The translations under genes were made by a program, and so were the position numbers. A stretch of DNA of 64,000 nt. It comes from Planctomycetota bacterium. GTDB lineage: Bacteria > Planctomycetota > GCA-002687715 > DRQF01. Each line of letters opens with the position of its first letter. The stretch's first letter is position 1. Positions 30,843 through 37,639 of the stretch are shown one piece after another. Below the pieces are notes generated by a model. It did no database searches and had not been told where the DNA came from. It was given only the letters and a program-made list of their open reading frames with translations. The stretch lies in contig JBLINQ010000008.1 of the NCBI GenBank assembly GCA_047639315.1, positions 810 to 64,809 on the forward strand, read 5' to 3'.

Positions 30843-32430
30843 TCAGATTCTACGATCGTTTGGCGCCGATCCCCATAGGCCGGAGATGGGAGAAAGATGA
30901 GCTATTGGTGAAGCGTTCTGCTGAGAAAATTGAATCTCAGTGATTGAGTTTGCAGATGATCGGAGAGATAGAGGACAAGGCGCACCAAGTCGCTCTCGAT
31001 GTTCTTCAACGAGGAGCGACTTGGTACACCATCGATCCTTCTGCTTTGCGTCGGTCTTCTTGCCATTGGTTTTGAGGTTCTTCTTGAGTGTCTTAATCTC
31101 GGCGACGACCTCCAAGTAGAGCTTCACTCGCTCGACCCCTTCTTTCGCAACCTTGGCGTTGTTGGGATTGGTGTCGCGCAGTCCTTCGGTGAGCACTTCT
31201 AATCCGTCCACATTGAAGTACCAGCTGAGATGTTTGATGGCATGCTTCCGAAGGGTCGAGTCTACGTCTTTGTTGTCGTCGAGCACCTGGGCATAGAAGG
31301 AGAGGAGATTCTCATTGTCTTCGGCGCGGTTCATGACCAATGAATGCCCAATTCCCATTGAAATGTTTGGCGTATTTCGTCGGGACTTGACTGACCCAAC
31401 GTTCAAACCCCTTCACTTGAAGCTCTTTGTTCTTGAGGAGCTTCAGATTTGTAAGTGCATTAAGAACCGCAAGGCACTTGCGGTTTTCGAGGTACTGATG
31501 AATGAGAGCAACCAGGGCATTGGGATCAGGGCAGCCGTTCATGAAGACTTCGAAGGCTCCCATTTCGTTTGGCCCATCATATTGGTCAATGAGCTGATCA
31601 AAGTAGGACCTTTCTGTCGTTGGCATCATGGCGATGACAGAAATGAGATTGCCTGTCTTCCTGGCGGCGTGTGCTTGAATGAAGTCATTAAGGGCCTTCA
31701 CGAGGTCACTGCCCTTTAGGTCCACATCCTTGAAATAAGCGAGGGCCTCCTCGTGTTGACTCCTTGAGATTGTGAACTTTGTGGTTGTCAGATACTCCAA
31801 GAAGTGCCTGGGTTGAACGATGGTTTTGATGGCTCCGGTGAGAATGGGAGAAGTGGGAGATCCACGATTCACTTGATGGCGCACGACTGAGAGCCTGACC
31901 ATGTCCATGAAGTTGTCGTGGTCACAAGTCGCTGCCGTCCATTTGAGGTCGGCCTCGAAGTTGTCAGAATTTATTGCCAGGATCTGTTTGATAACCGCAC
32001 GACACAACTTGGGGTTGCGATTCGATGAGGTCAGTAGCCGCAAGTAAGATCGACATCTGGTATCCGCGAGTTTGTCCGCCACTTGAGCCAAGACGCTCGG
32101 GTTTGCCTTGGCAAGAAAGTGACGTGCTGATTCATCAAGGCACGGAAACGCGACTTACCCTGGCGGAAGTAGGAGGGTGGTGAATCTTCACCTCTCATAG
32201 GTCGAGTTTTGGTGTCCACCAATCCGGTTGTTTCAAGGGCAAGAATGTCCACGGCCACTTTCCTGGCCAATTCGTCACTGACATTCTGGTTTGCGTTTTG
32301 GATACGCGAAACTTTCTCCGAATGTCCTTCTCTGCATCAAAGAACTGGAGCAACAGGCGGTCGGCAACGGCCGTCCCTTGGCGTATGGCTGCTCGGCACG
32401 ATTCCCAGGCCAACACGTCGTCTTTGAGGC
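30843..32430 (-). pseudogene. Multiply frameshifted, 5'-truncated helical/HEAT-like protein gene
   Basis: Protein-like segments hop frames: 32195..32416, 32031..32270, 31312..32091, 30843..31406 (the last has HEAT-like 'LRKHAIKHLSWY..VDGLEVLTEGLRD'). No credible start/RBS at the 5' end. Confidence 0.55.
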
Positions 32431-32932
32431 CGATGGTGATGGGGTCGATTTCTTACGCACCCGGCGAAAACTTGGCGCCGACGTTCCCATCATTGCGGTG
32501 ACCGCCCGAGGCGAAGAGGAGCAGAGAATCGAGGGATTACGAGCCGGTGCCGACGATTATGTCGTCAAGCCATTTAGCATTGTTGAGTTGGATGCTCGCG
32601 TCGAAGCGGTGGGACGTCGCCGGTTAGGTCCGAGTGTGCTCGATCTTGAGGTGGCAACGGTAGACATGCAGGCTTTCACTTTTCAGCGTGACGGCAAGAA
32701 TTCGAAACTCCTTCAGAAGGAAGCGGAACTCCTCGACTACCTGAGTGAGAACCCTGGCGTGACGTTTCGCCGTAGCGATCTACTGCGCCGCGTCTGGGGT
32801 TATGACGCAGCGCCGACGATTCGAACGGTCGATACCCACGTCTTCAAATTGCGTAAGAAGTTAGAGCTTAAGCCAGAGAACCCGAGGCACCTGATTACGG
32901 TTCATGGGGTTGGTTATCGTTTTGAACCTTGA
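32429..32932 (+). pseudogene. OmpR-family response regulator lacking the N-terminal half of the receiver domain
   Basis: Homology starts abruptly at DGDGVDFLR...VPIIAVTARG...GADDYVVKPF, followed by a wHTH (RTVDTHVFKLRKKLE, TVHGVGYRF). The acidic pocket and phospho-Asp strand are absent; residues encoded by 32291-32428 are not receiver-like. Confidence 0.7.
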
Positions 32933-33026: not shown

Positions 33027-34874
33027 TTAAAAGAAGATGAAGTTCGGGTTCGAGATGTAGTAGTTGCCGACGCCGAGTTCATCGGTGTAGTAGCTAATCA
33101 TCTGGAAGACAGCCGTGAAGCCTGCACCATCGAGGGCTTCGTTGCCACCGAAGGAGATAATGTTGTCTCCGTTTGCGGCAGTGACCAGGCTTGGCTCGTA
33201 TTCCCCAATCAACCCGGTGCTGGAGACAGCGCCAAAGTCGAATGATGGATTCAAGATACTGGTGTGGATGTTACCCCATGGTGTTGGGAACGGAACTTGT
33301 GGTGCATCATAAGCGAGAGTCAGGAACATACCTGGACGCTCAGTTTCAGTGATGAACAACAAAGTGCCATTTGCTGGCGTCCAGAAAGTACGGAGGCGGC
33401 GAGTGTAGACCGTTATCTCAGTGCTCTCAGTTGTACCGACGCGTTCAGCCTTGATGACTGTTGTGCCTGGGCTGCTGGCACCGCGAACGAGGTGACGAGC
33501 GCGACCATTGGCGTCAGTGATTGTGTTGCTGCTGCCTGGCAAGAATGCGTTACCGCTCACAACAGTCCACCGGACTGCACCGCCGATAACGGGCGAACCG
33601 AAGCCGTCAATGACTTGCACTTCGGCAAGTTGGGCGAAGTCTTCGAAAACGTTGCCACCTTGGTATGCACCAGCAATAGCGAACAAGCCGCCCTTTGGTG
33701 CCAAGTTGAATTGCAGGTCGTTTGGTGTGCCGGGCTTGAACAGGTCCATTGTCGCCGCAAAGATTGTTGAGGCCGGGAGATCACTCTCGAAGTGGAAGCT
33801 GAACAAGTTACCCCAACGAAGAGCGTTGCCCATTGGAGTTGTAGCAAAATCAGGACCGTCCCAACGGATCTTGCTGTTGATGTTGTCAACAGTTGAAACC
33901 CAGTCAGTTCCTGCGAAAGGCTCACCACTGTGATAGTCAACGTCATGGAATGAGATGTTGCTGATGTTGGCACCAGCTGGGAATTCCATTTCGAATCCGT
34001 TGGCGCAGCGATCGGAAGTGACGTTTTGGATTGAGACGTCAAAAGAGTAACCACCACCCGGTTTTGGCGCGGAGCGGAAACCAACCCAGAAACGACCTTC
34101 GCCTGGAACGTCGATCGGATTGAGGTTTACGGCTGGATCATGAAGTGGCCAAGCCTGGATAGCAGCTTCTTGGCGAACCGTGGATTCGCCAGGTGTGAAA
34201 CTCATGTTGTAGTCGGCGCCACTCTGAGCGACGTTCACTTGACGCCAGGAGACGCTGTCAGCGCCGTTACCAGCTTGTGCTTCGTCTTGGGTTACGTATT
34301 GACCTTCGACGAAGTAGAGAGCACCAGCGTTTTGTGCTGGATCGAGATCAGATGTGTGAACTTGAAGGCGCTTGAAAGTGCTGTTGCCTGTCGTTCCCTG
34401 ACCAAAGTAAGGGTAAGGGTAAACACCATCGAAGGCGTTCACTTGGAATTTTGGGCCGAGTCCACCTTGGGAGCCGTTAAGTCCTGAGCCATATGGATCA
34501 GAGCATCCTATGCCAAGGTAAGTTCCGTCAGATGAGACTGGGCAACCATCGCAGAGCGTGCCGCTCAATGCGAAGAAGCCATGCTTCAACCATGATTGAC
34601 CAATTTGCTCAAAGCGCCCGTCCTTGAGACGGAACGCATGCTGGCCAATGACCGGATGCAAATTGTTGTTCTGTTGCCAACTCAAGTTGGCGTCGCCGAT
34701 ATTGCACGATGTCGTTCCGACGGAGAAGGCGTCGATGCCTGCTCCCGCGTCGACGGAATAATTCGAGACACCATTGAGGTCGCCGACAATCACGTTCGGA
34801 CTTTGGGCGTTCAGGCCTGCGGCGAGCAGACCCATCAATGTGCAGCACATCACTGCAACGGAAGCTAACTTCAT
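33027..34874 (-). CDS. Secreted uncharacterised protein ('GTTSCNIG...EQIGQSWLKHGF' family) with an Ig-like (Big_1-like) C-terminal region
   Basis: Signal peptide, Cys-containing conserved N-terminal domain, later 'VQVIDGFGSPV.G..VRWTV......TDANGRA' Ig-like motif; 615 aa. Confidence 0.6.
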   Translation of the reverse strand: MKLASVAVMCCTLMGLLAAGLNAQSPNVIVGDLNGVSNYSVDAGAGIDAFSVGTTSCNIGDANLSWQQNNNLHPVIGQHAFRLKDGRFEQIGQSWLKHGFFALSGTLCDGCPVSSDGTYLGIGCSDPYGSGLNGSQGGLGPKFQVNAFDGVYPYPYFGQGTTGNSTFKRLQVHTSDLDPAQNAGALYFVEGQYVTQDEAQAGNGADSVSWRQVNVAQSGADYNMSFTPGESTVRQEAAIQAWPLHDPAVNLNPIDVPGEGRFWVGFRSAPKPGGGYSFDVSIQNVTSDRCANGFEMEFPAGANISNISFHDVDYHSGEPFAGTDWVSTVDNINSKIRWDGPDFATTPMGNALRWGNLFSFHFESDLPASTIFAATMDLFKPGTPNDLQFNLAPKGGLFAIAGAYQGGNVFEDFAQLAEVQVIDGFGSPVIGGAVRWTVVSGNAFLPGSSNTITDANGRARHLVRGASSPGTTVIKAERVGTTESTEITVYTRRLRTFWTPANGTLLFITETERPGMFLTLAYDAPQVPFPTPWGNIHTSILNPSFDFGAVSSTGLIGEYEPSLVTAANGDNIISFGGNEALDGAGFTAVFQMISYYTDELGVGNYYISNPNFIFF

Positions 34875-35103: not shown

Positions 35104-35946
35104 CTACTGAATCGATGCGAACAGCCCGATTCCCGTCCAGATCCGAAACCAATTGCCGATTGATGCGACAAGTTGATCAAAGTCAACTTCCGGGAGATTG
35201 GCGGCGGCTTCGATGGCGTCGAGGAGAGTCCCGCCTTGCTCCAATGTCTCGAGGATGACGAATTGCGATTCCGACAACGTTGTTCGCCAAACGGTGTAGT
35301 CACGGCGGTAGAGGAGTAGCCAGCTATCTCGCTCAGCTGGGACTTCTAAGTGTCGGTCTTCTTTGCGGGCTTCGATGAATTCGTCTACCGGAAACTGCAA
35401 GGCAAGGCGTCGATGAGCCGGGATCAGAGACAAACGCAGAGCACCCCAAGCTTCTGGCGTAATGTTCAAGATATCGTCGGCGGGAACGCTTGTGACATTC
35501 TTCTCGTCGAAACACACATTGGTCGCACGTTCGACGCTTGCCACATCGACAAGGAAACCGCGGTGATCGATCGTCTCGTTTGTTTCTGCGAGAAAAGCTG
35601 AGAAGTGTGAGCCCAAGTGCGCAAGGTTCGGAGACGAAGATGGATAGTGGTGGAGATAGCTTTTCGCAATCTCATGAAATCTCTCATGGCCAAGCGTGAA
35701 CTGCACCACGGGAAAGTCTTCGGCAAGCGACTCCACGAGTCGCCAGTAGTACATGTCGGAGTAAACACGCAAACGGTCCATCGCCGAAAGTTGAGGGCCC
35801 GCCGTGGCAATCTCTTCAACTGAGTCGGTTGGCCAAATTTGATGGGCCTCGTTGCTCGTAATGCCAGCTTCAATGCCTTCTGGATGCGAGACAACTTGCA
35901 GCATCCAGCGTTCGAAACGGTCGAGGCTCTCGGCTTCATGGTTCAT
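35104..35946 (-). CDS. DUF2063-type MNIO partner protein (BufC/HvfC-like)
   Basis: RLRVYSDMYYWRLVESLAEDFPVV...F..Y...YPSSS.NL..LG..F..FL motif; ATG overlaps the MNIO TGA. Confidence 0.85.
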   Translation of the reverse strand: MNHEAESLDRFERWMLQVVSHPEGIEAGITSNEAHQIWPTDSVEEIATAGPQLSAMDRLRVYSDMYYWRLVESLAEDFPVVQFTLGHERFHEIAKSYLHHYPSSSPNLAHLGSHFSAFLAETNETIDHRGFLVDVASVERATNVCFDEKNVTSVPADDILNITPEAWGALRLSLIPAHRRLALQFPVDEFIEARKEDRHLEVPAERDSWLLLYRRDYTVWRTTLSESQFVILETLEQGGTLLDAIEAAANLPEVDFDQLVASIGNWFRIWTGIGLFASIQ

Positions 35947-36788
35947 CGGCGAGCCTCATCTGTGCGGAATCGTTTGGCCCGAAGAACCTCATTGTGAACT
36001 TCATCAAAAGAGGGGATCTCATCATCCCACTCCAACAGAGTGGCCCTATTGCCAGCTCGATCCATGACCCATTTATAAAGTTCCCAAACTTCGTCAATGA
36101 CGATGCCGTCATGGGTGTCAATGCAGTGCGTTCCCTTGTCTGTATGGCCAGCCAAGTGAATTTGAACGACTCGGTCCATGGGGATCTTTTCTAAGTACTG
36201 AATGGGATCAAAGCCATGGTTTCTTGAGCTGACATAGACGTTGTTGACGTCGAGCAGGAGGGCGCAGTCACTCTGCTTTGCCATCTCCGATAAGAATTCT
36301 TCTTCCGAGAGGCTGTTGGCAGTGAAGCTGACATAGGTTGAAGGATTCTCGATGACCAAGGGCCGTTCCAAGAAATCCTGAATTTGGCAGATACGCCCGA
36401 CAACCCATTTGAGGCTCTCCTCGTTCGTAGGCACTGGGTAGAGATCATGGCCATTTTTGCCCGCGACTCCGGTCCAGCAGAGATGATCGCCTAACCACTT
36501 GGCATCAACTCGAGCAGCGAGTTTCTTGAGCTTCAACATGTAGCCCCAGTCGATGGGGTCGGTGCTTCCGATCGACATGGAGACACCATGCATCACGATG
36601 GGATAGCGCTCTGCCACTTGCTCCAAGATGTGGAGAGGACGGCCCTCAGTCTCCATGTAGTTTTCGGAGATGATCTCGAACCAATCGATCTCGGGCCAGT
36701 GCTCTAAGATGTGGGGGTAATGCACGGAGCGAAGTCCGATTCCCAGGCCAAGGTCAGGCAGATTCCATTTGTTCGGAATTGTGGTCAT
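35943..36788 (-). CDS. DUF692-family multinuclear non-heme iron oxidative enzyme (MNIO; BufB/HvfB/MbnB-like)
   Basis: GIGLRSVHY, WFEIISENY, HGVSMSIG, GDHLCW, IENPSTY, LLDVNNVYV, QIHLAGH, IDTHD, LLEWD. ATG 36788. Confidence 0.95.
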   Translation of the reverse strand: MTTIPNKWNLPDLGLGIGLRSVHYPHILEHWPEIDWFEIISENYMETEGRPLHILEQVAERYPIVMHGVSMSIGSTDPIDWGYMLKLKKLAARVDAKWLGDHLCWTGVAGKNGHDLYPVPTNEESLKWVVGRICQIQDFLERPLVIENPSTYVSFTANSLSEEEFLSEMAKQSDCALLLDVNNVYVSSRNHGFDPIQYLEKIPMDRVVQIHLAGHTDKGTHCIDTHDGIVIDEVWELYKWVMDRAGNRATLLEWDDEIPSFDEVHNEVLRAKRFRTDEARR

Positions 36789-36813
36789 TGATGAGTCCGC
36801 GAGGGAAAAGACC

Positions 36814-36836
36814 TCAGTGCGCTGGGAGCGCACTGA
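36814..36836 (-). terminator. Hairpin between precursor and MNIO gene (weak terminator or mRNA stabiliser)
   Basis: TCAGTGCGCT-CCC-AGCGCACTGA (minus strand) 10-bp stem, followed by GGTCTTTT. Confidence 0.55.
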
Positions 36837-36849
36837 AATCTCAGATCGA

Positions 36850-37263
36850 TCAGTGTTTCAGTGGAACGGCGCAACCACCCTTGCCATCGCAGGAGTTTTT
36901 GCCCTTGCAACCGTTGTCGCTCGATTTGCAGCCGCCAAGGCCTTTGCAGGAGTTCTTGCCGCCACAAGAGTGAGCTTTGACTGTGGCACAGCCGCCCTTG
37001 CCCTTGCAGGTGTTCTTGCCGGCGCAGCTACCGTCGCCAGACTTGCAGCCACCATTGCCCTTGCAGGAGTTCTTGGCCTTGCAGATGTGTTTTTCTAAAC
37101 CCATCTCGTGGGCCGCTTTTGCCATGCCGTCGGTGCTTGCCTGCGTGGTAGCAGGGCTTGGGGTCTCATCTTTCTTGTCACCACAACCAACTGTAGCAGC
37201 GGCAATGATGCCACCGGTTGCTGCCAGGAGGGCTCGGTTGAAATCGCGTCTGTTCATTCCCAT
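36850..37263 (-). CDS. Cys/Gly/Lys-repeat RiPP precursor (BufA2/HvfA-like) with twin-arginine lipoprotein-type signal, 4 repeats
   Basis: MGMNRRDFN...ATVGC, then four C-x-x-K-N-x-C-x-G-x-G-G-C units (12 Cys); directly upstream of DUF692. Confidence 0.88.
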   Translation of the reverse strand: MGMNRRDFNRALLAATGGIIAAATVGCGDKKDETPSPATTQASTDGMAKAAHEMGLEKHICKAKNSCKGNGGCKSGDGSCAGKNTCKGKGGCATVKAHSCGGKNSCKGLGGCKSSDNGCKGKNSCDGKGGCAVPLKH

Positions 37264-37351
37264 GGGGATCTCCAAGAGTAGAAGGGTGAATTTCTAAATC
37301 TGGCGACTTGTGGTCAACCAGGAATAGTCCTGGCTCAGATCATAGCACAGC

Positions 37352-37393
37352 AAAAAAAGGAAGACCTCGGCCAATTGATAGCCGAGGTCTTTT
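37352..37393 (-). terminator. Intrinsic terminator between the two precursor genes
   Basis: AAGACCTCGGC / GCCGAGGTCTT 11-bp stem; on the minus strand followed by CC-TTTTTTT. Confidence 0.75.
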
Positions 37394-37405
37394 GAATGTG
37401 TCTGT

Positions 37406-37639
37406 TTATCTCGTCCTGCAGCCGCCTTTGCCTTCGCAGGAGTTTTTGCCCTTGCAGCCGTTGTCGCCGCCCTCACAGCCACCATGGCCTTTGCAAGCGT
37501 TGTGACCAGCGCACTCGTGTCCGGCATCAGCGACTGCATGTTCGCTGCCGTCCGAGGCGCAGCCCAAAGTAGAGCCGGCAACAATGCCACCAAAGGCAGC
37601 AATAATGACTTTGTTAAAATCGCGTCTCTTAAGACCCAT
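37406..37639 (-). CDS. Second Cys-repeat RiPP precursor with twin-arginine lipoprotein-type signal, 2 repeats
   Basis: GGAG RBS; MGLKRRDFNK...STLGC then CAGHNACKGHGGC and CKGKNSCEGKGGC. Confidence 0.85.
   Translation of the reverse strand: MGLKRRDFNKVIIAAFGGIVAGSTLGCASDGSEHAVADAGHECAGHNACKGHGGCEGGDNGCKGKNSCEGKGGCRTR

Follow-up and report, generated by a model that had tools for sequence, protein, structure and literature searches.

Twin-arginine-type motifs and lipobox cysteines in the signal peptides of two planctomycete bufferin precursors

Bufferins are recently described and very widespread copper-defence RiPPs (peptides that are made by ribosomes and modified after translation), and what marks them out as odd is that they carry an ordinary secretion signal instead of a leader peptide. 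The closest described relative of the locus presented here is Bufferin 2 of Caulobacter vibrioides (BufA2/BufB2/BufC2, CCNA_02999-03001; Buf_6/12Cys; PMC11626156, PMC12452194). Our locus is a Buf2-type bufferin biosynthetic cluster with the order bufA(6-Cys)-bufA(12-Cys)-bufB-bufC, located on the minus strand of a 64,000-nucleotide stretch of contig JBLINQ010000008.1 of a Planctomycetota bacterium (the window; assembly GCA_047639315.1). It shares with the Caulobacter cluster the bufA-bufB-bufC arrangement, an MNIO maturase with a DUF2063 partner, 6-Cys domains of CxxxNxCxGxGGC-type spacing preceded by His, an N-terminal export signal that replaces the classical leader, and the absence of a doxX gene. 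In contrast to Caulobacter, two tandem precursors (6-Cys and 12-Cys) are encoded in the window, and both score below the curated NCBIfam BufA2 cut-off. Further, their signals combine an RR-x-F motif with a lipobox Cys, whereas the Caulobacter precursor carries a Sec signal cleaved by signal peptidase I (SPI) at an experimentally mapped position.

Bufferin signals are called Sec-dependent throughout PMC11626156, PMC12452194 and PMC13056109, in which neither 'Tat' nor 'twin-arginine' occurs. An earlier note on this DNA, made from the letters alone, had it that the characterised bufferins are exported by Sec, which is correct (PMC11626156). It has also been pointed out that bufferins must have some means of escaping Sec export until they are modified, a problem raised as unsolved (PMC12452194). 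DybA, a RiPP-lipoprotein hybrid, and the predicted lipoprotein bufferins (PMC12452194, PMC13056109) resemble the window precursors in being MNIO-modified peptides with a signal of the signal peptidase II (SPII) type, whose mature RiPP is expected to be lipidated at its N-terminus and membrane-bound. Unlike the window signals, they are described as Sec/SPII with no mention of a twin-arginine motif; DybA, moreover, belongs to the ChrH subfamily with a different chemistry, and the hybrid has been demonstrated there, whereas lipidation of bufferins is predicted.

Two further groups of proteins can be compared from the side of the twin-arginine translocation (Tat) pathway. Tat-dependent lipoproteins (SignalP 6 class Tat/SPII) have been described in Streptomyces and haloarchaea. 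The window signals share with them a twin-arginine motif, a moderately hydrophobic, Gly/Ala-rich hydrophobic region (h-region) and a lipobox Cys, but they have a polar or small residue where Leu is canonical, possess a minimal N-terminal region (n-region) of M-x-RR and are missed by the curated Tat hidden Markov models (HMMs). The cargo also differs, being a small modified peptide here and not a cofactor enzyme. This genome itself has canonical examples of the combined signal on large redox-enzyme-like open reading frames (ORFs). CueO, PcoA and NosZ are Tat-exported periplasmic copper proteins with canonical RRxFLK signals; like the window precursors they are copper-handling envelope proteins with twin-arginine signals, but they have unrelated folds, are not RiPPs and show the canonical form of the motif. 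To our knowledge, no RiPP family has so far been described as exported by Tat. Our search of the searchable full-text literature for Tat or twin-arginine signals on RiPP, MNIO, DUF692 or bufferin precursors returned nothing relevant. Within that literature, Tat-type signals on bufferin precursors are undescribed, and the motif extends well beyond the window.

We propose that the two precursors are Buf2 bufferins that are exported by Tat and lipidated at Cys27, resulting in a membrane-anchored copper buffer, and we assign this explanation as a whole a probability of about 0.5. By analogy with the Caulobacter model, BufB and BufC would act in the cytoplasm and form 5-thiooxazoles from the four central Cys residues in every 6-Cys domain; the outer Cys pair would form a disulfide after export, and the product would bind copper in the cell envelope (PMC11626156). 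As judged from the signals, export would be post-translational and most likely by Tat, recognising M-x-RR-x-F-(N/T/G/A/S)-(K/R). Lgt would lipidate Cys27, LspA would then cleave the signal and Lnt would N-acylate the new N-terminus, so that the modified domain would stay tethered to a membrane via a polar linker of 15-33 residues. The outcome would be a membrane-anchored copper buffer instead of a soluble periplasmic one. Since bufferins are already described as periplasmic copper sequesterers, the anchor changes the location of the product and not its kind. The additional ideas of the earlier note, that the peptide is perhaps exported in a metal-loaded form and acts as a metal sponge instead of a free metallophore, are speculation.

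Buf2-type bufferin clusters have been defined before (PMC11626156, PMC12452194), and the locus is one of them. The reading of the two small genes as RiPP precursors is borne out by the bufA-bufA-bufB-bufC order, a BufB protein above the model cut-off, the DUF2063 domain of its partner and matches to the BufA2 model. The matches of the precursors to this model (NF050166) reach E = 5.7e-11 (42.5 bits) for the long and E = 1.8e-8 (34.5 bits) for the short precursor, both below the equivalog cut-off of 60, and the same model is matched by 83/83 homologues with the RRxF-type signal described below (best E = 1.1e-25). The bufC-like gene overlaps bufB by 4 nt, and its product scores 59.5 bits against the HvfC-family model, under the cut-off of 142. 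BufB is encoded downstream of the precursor gene in 73 related loci. No second bufferin cluster was found in the 5.2-Mb, 280-contig genome.

Both precursors begin with MG(M/L)(N/K)RRDFN(R/K), and the twin-arginine-type motif occupies residues 5-10 in each, as the earlier note had read. The repeat numbers given there also held: the long precursor contains four exact CxxxNxCxGxGGC repeats (36871-37083; 12 core Cys plus Cys27) and the short one contains two (37418-37513; 6 core Cys plus Cys27). The same is true for the His residues near the repeats. They precede each 6-Cys unit, and the repeats are flanked by KHIC, KAHSC and a C-terminal LKH in the long precursor and by GHEC, AGHNAC and KGHGGC in the short one. 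When 83 homologues are aligned, the Cys, Asn and Gly positions of the core show almost no variation. The start codons agree with those of the orthologues in the relatives L009 and L032, L032 showing the same MGLKRRDFNK start as the short precursor, and a GGAG stands 7 nt upstream of the ATG of the short gene (37639) and 6 nt upstream of that of the long gene (37263). A PDB sequence search gave no match. The AlphaFold2 model of the long precursor, built on an 83-sequence alignment, had a mean pLDDT of 52, with the signal-peptide helix alone being confident and the core remaining below 50.

To survey signal types we used three samples: the closest homologues of the full-length precursors (the best 120 of ~6,500 with the long precursor as query, 4 with the short), the best 150 representatives of 50%-identity clusters obtained with a core-only query that is unbiased for signal type, and 80 loci from GTDB species genomes found by core-derived patterns. 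RR-x-F at the boundary of the n- and h-regions was present in 39/132 (30%) of the cluster representatives with a recognisable signal, 13 with a lipobox and 26 without. When the 243 classifiable protein homologues of the first two samples were pooled, RR-x-F was found in 83, accompanied by a lipobox in 29 and not in 54, while 82 had a lipobox without RR and 78 had neither feature. The family motif can be written as M-(N/D)-R-R-(D/E)-F-(N/T/G/A/S)-(K/R), with the initiator Met usually two residues ahead of the RR.

The arginines and the phenylalanine are strictly coupled. Among 169 homologues whose n/h boundary carries a dibasic pair, Phe follows two residues on in 75/84 cases when the last pair before the h-region is RR, and in 0/85 cases when it is KK, KR or RK (Fisher p = 2e-38), which is not expected of a generic basic Sec n-region. 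RR-type h-regions are also poorer in Leu (0.12 vs 0.18, p = 1.5e-6) and richer in Gly (0.20 vs 0.15, p = 8e-14) than non-RR ones; lower Leu and higher Gly is the direction reported for Tat as compared to Sec signals. The mean Kyte-Doolittle hydrophobicity of the h-region did not differ between RR and non-RR signals (1.54 vs 1.50, p = 0.23); the Leu and Gly contents alone did.

Both paralogues carry RRxF and the lipobox Cys at identical positions, as does every member of the clade to which the window belongs (L005, L008, L009, L032). Among the 80 loci, planctomycete precursors are almost all of the lipobox type, those of Acidobacteriota are of the SPI type, many with RRxF, and the gammaproteobacterial examples are RRxF/SPI; the combination of RRxF and lipobox is confined to the planctomycete clade that includes the window. 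On a maximum-likelihood tree of BufB from 69 loci, the RR label takes 5 changes, one of which comes from a truncated locus, and the signal-type groups require 4-5 changes each, compared to means of 18.7-20.0 after shuffling. The five loci with RRxF plus lipobox group together in one BufB clade (SH-aLRT 92), whose sister is the gammaproteobacterial RRxF/SPI clade. From these sequence comparisons we conclude that the twin-arginine motif is old, has been inherited stably and is under selection. In this survey, a check that the earlier note had suggested, RR-x-F was present in 39/132 representatives; the trait follows BufB clades across three phyla, and its combination with a lipobox forms a single planctomycete clade.

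One clade of Acidobacteriota with MKKGDLTxKA n-regions (L044, L049, L050, L057, L060, L064, L065, L071) nests among the RRxF clades of the BufB tree. Aligned to M-D-RR-E-F-T-K, its n-region looks like a twin-arginine motif that has decayed, with K-G for RR and L for F, and the alignment suggests a switch from RR-type to KK-type signals by few substitutions.

The genome encodes TatC (229 bits), and a TatA-like ORF is also present. Large, redox-enzyme-like ORFs on other contigs (C166, C201, C68) carry canonical RRxFL(K/R/E) followed by the lipobox-like sequences LGGC, MTSC and LAGC; a Tat-plus-lipobox architecture in canonical form thus exists elsewhere in this genome. The claim that the precursors bear Tat signals stands in part: the RR-x-F motif is conserved and selected and TatA and TatC are present, but the motif is non-canonical and escapes the curated Tat models TIGR01409 and PF10518. 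Tat export of both precursors is a plausible prediction, to which we give roughly even odds; Sec export, also predicted from the signals, appears somewhat less probable.

Several observations weigh against Tat. The canonical consensus is S/T-R-R-x-F-L-K, in which the residue after Phe is usually Leu. The K/R that follows this position is present and conserved in the bufferin motif, but the residue after Phe is N/T/G/A/S in 81/83 RRxF homologues and His in 2, with no L/I/V/M tallied, and both window precursors have Asn. Neither precursor N-terminus matches TIGR01409 or PF10518, even at E <= 10, and both models match 5/5 canonical Tat-like N-termini of the same genome. TIGR01409 matches 9/83 of the RRxF homologues, and a TatP-type regular expression is satisfied by 16/83. 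Against a crude HMM built from 16 canonical Tat N-termini of this genome, which is weak evidence, the precursors reach 5-6 bits, near the bottom of the range of 4.4-25.8 bits that leave-one-out runs gave for the canonical sequences. TatC was found in 48/49 genomes whatever the signal type, so that its presence does not discriminate. In addition, sister clades with near-identical cores have KK-type (Sec) signals, and the cargo hence does not require Tat.

Alternatively, the precursors may be Sec-exported SPII lipoproteins, lipidated at Cys27, with RR-x-F-polar-K serving either as part of a leader-like sequence to which BufB/BufC bind or as a brake on Sec targeting while modification is still under way. 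The failure of both curated HMMs on the precursors and most RRxF homologues, the post-Phe position that is never hydrophobic and the low scores relative to the genome's own Tat signals speak for this reading. The signal type also follows the BufB clades, which would be expected of a co-evolving recognition motif, and the KKGDLTxK clade that resembles a decayed RR-E-F-T-K retains the acidic-hydrophobic-Thr...Lys pattern. Further, the h-region motif A-A-V-(A/G)-G-x-x-A-G is kept in RR-type, KK-type, lipobox and SPI-type BufA2 signals (P0001-P0263), and Gly is found at +13 after RR in 77/83 and at +17 in 69/83 RRxF homologues, which is unusual for signal peptides. This conservation fits preliminary data according to which the recognition sequence of BufBC includes the signal peptide, reported in a study that treats all bufferin signals as Sec-type (PMC12452194); RRxF could therefore be a recognition element and not a Tat motif, which again speaks against Tat export. 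Recognition by BufBC leaves unexplained why the pair is invariably Arg-Arg, and never Lys, when Phe is present. In many clades the n-region is simply K-rich and processing evidently takes place with no RR-x-F motif, and the signal peptide of BufA1 was dispensable for modification upon overexpression (PMC11626156). Overall, we regard Sec export with such a role of the motif as possible, if doubtful.

The second part of our proposal is lipidation. The hydrophobic stretch ends in T-V/L-G-C in both precursors, as the earlier note had it, with the Cys at residue 27. TVGC and TLGC, together with an uncharged h-region, a basic n-region and a Cys within residues 15-35, fit a PS51257-type rule. The lipobox Cys is kept in every clade member and, with non-RR n-regions, in most planctomycete homologues; the polar tether that follows it averages 28-31 residues in the lipobox classes. 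Lgt, LspA and Lnt are encoded in the genome, which is 89.6% complete, and LolA was not found in it. The lipobox reading is thus supported by pattern, conservation, tether and enzymes, and lipidation of Cys27 is predicted for both precursors with good confidence. It is also a prediction that had already been published: the share of Buf2 bufferins predicted to be lipoproteins is about 16% (PMC12452194), RiPP-lipoprotein hybrids have been demonstrated, and bufferins are among the families listed with SPII signals (PMC13056109). A predicted lipid anchor on bufferins is consequently not new (PMC12452194, PMC13056109).

Alternatively, SPI could cut after Tat or Sec export at AAA|TVGC, AGS|TLGC or nearby, Cys27 being just an extra Cys near the mature N-terminus and the product a peptide that is free in the periplasm, as Caulobacter Buf2 is. 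Directly before the lipobox lie possible SPI sites, AAA|T and AGS|T, with small residues at -3 and -1 before Thr24 in both precursors, which counts against an anchored product. Position -3 of the lipobox is Thr in both precursors and not the classical Leu/Val/Ile, and the RRxF homologues of Acidobacteriota and Gammaproteobacteria, which lack a Cys there, must use SPI. Against such a cut stand the conserved Cys, its agreement with the PS51257-type rule, the long polar tether and the presence of Lgt, LspA and Lnt, and Buf2 precursors of this kind have already been classed as lipoproteins in surveys that used SignalP (PMC12452194, PMC13056109). We consider a soluble product improbable.

If Tat export and Cys27 lipidation are combined as we propose, a large and stable Buf2 subset (~30%; Acidobacteriota, Gammaproteobacteria and one planctomycete clade) would be routed through Tat, and the planctomycete clade would in addition be lipidated, yielding membrane-anchored thiooxazole copper lipopeptides; we hold this extension to be about as probable as its opposite. 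Bufferins would then be the first known RiPP family with Tat export, and RiPP biosynthesis would gain an export route. Tat being strictly post-translational and tolerant of folding, its use would explain how the RRxF subset escapes export before modification by BufBC. The lipid anchor bears on the site of copper buffering, membrane surface or bulk periplasm, an idea that is already in the literature. The atypical RR-x-F-polar-K motif would also provide a useful natural test set for the prediction of Tat signals.

The two precursor genes share an identical segment of 23 nt, located in the last repeat of each (Table 1), which the earlier note had taken as a sign of duplication or conversion. The identity is real, and the last repeats of the short and the long gene agree in 35/39 nt. 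Outside the last repeat, the two genes are ~67-75% identical, with 54/81 identical positions in the DNA encoding the signal peptides. The relatives L009 and L032 carry the same pair of a short and a long gene, and L005 has the long gene only. Because of the low identity elsewhere and the pair in L009 and L032, we interpret the segment as what is left of an old duplication, in the repeat that is under the strongest constraint. Recent gene conversion was considered as its source and rejected on the same grounds; of the two origins, duplication is retained, as an old event. Multiple precursors per locus are not confined to the RRxF clade, since two Planctomycetota metagenome-assembled genomes (MAGs; L007 and L036) have two 12-Cys precursors per locus, both of the Sec/lipobox type.

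Table 1. Positions of the bufferin genes, signal-peptide elements and hairpins in the window
Feature	Position	Strand	Remarks
BufC-like partner, N-terminal DUF2063 domain	35104..35946	-	PF09836 65.6 bits (cut-off 27.2)
BufB, MNIO (DUF692) bufferin maturase	35943..36788	-	NF050167 351.6 bits (cut-off 310); PF05114 348.7 bits
Stable hairpin between long gene and bufB	36812..36842	-	-28.8 kcal/mol, z = -4.35
Long BufA2-type precursor, 137 aa	36850..37263	-	Signal peptide MGMNRRDFNRALLAATGGIIAAATVGC then GDKKDE; two 6-Cys domains, ~33-aa polar linker
Identical 23-nt segment, coding strand TGCAAGGGCAAAAACTCCTGCGA	36887-36909 = 37434-37456 (+ strand numbering)	.	Last repeat of each precursor
Lipobox-like TVGC, long precursor, Cys = residue 27	37183..37194	-	Kept in P0002-P0006, L005, L008, L009, L032
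Twin-arginine-type motif RRDFNR, long precursor, residues 5-10	37234..37251	-	Homologue comparison
Intrinsic-terminator-like hairpin, 13-bp stem then T run, directly after short gene	37361..37391	-	-26.9 kcal/mol, z = -5.3
Short BufA2-type precursor, 77 aa	37406..37639	-	Signal peptide MGLKRRDFNKVIIAAFGGIVAGSTLGC then ASDGSE; one 6-Cys domain, 15-aa polar linker
Lipobox-like TLGC, short precursor, Cys = residue 27	37559..37570	-	PS51257-type pattern; kept in L009, L032
Twin-arginine-type motif RRDFNK, short precursor, residues 5-10	37610..37627	-	Homologue comparison

Each precursor gene is followed by a hairpin (Table 1). The one between the long gene and bufB has a short T run only and is hence not listed by the terminator scan. 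Such hairpins are commonly taken to keep precursor transcripts in excess of enzyme transcripts, and the two found here possibly set the precursor-to-enzyme ratio, the one before bufB acting as an attenuator.

Three much longer proteins with a BufA2-like domain, P0210 (432 aa), P0222 (530 aa) and P0211 (331 aa), were also encountered, and in one of these the domain follows an MDRREFTK signal. Fusion or wrong gene calling may account for them.

The nearest relatives of the locus are Planctomycetota MAGs, and the window shares with the relative L005 the synteny sulfatase-Lon-bufA-bufB-bufC-Big_1 protein. The last of these genes (33027-34874, minus strand), directly downstream of bufC, encodes a secreted protein of 615 aa whose Big_1 domain is weak, and it occupies the same place in L005 and L006; its connection with the cluster may be functional or one of synteny only. 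Between it and a gene for a DPP-IV-like peptidase lie ORFs at ~30843-32932. As the Big_1 and DPP-IV-like genes are adjacent in L005, this region looks like a lineage-specific insertion. One of its ORFs, on the plus strand (32291-32932), resembles by eye the C-terminal part of an OmpR-type response regulator.

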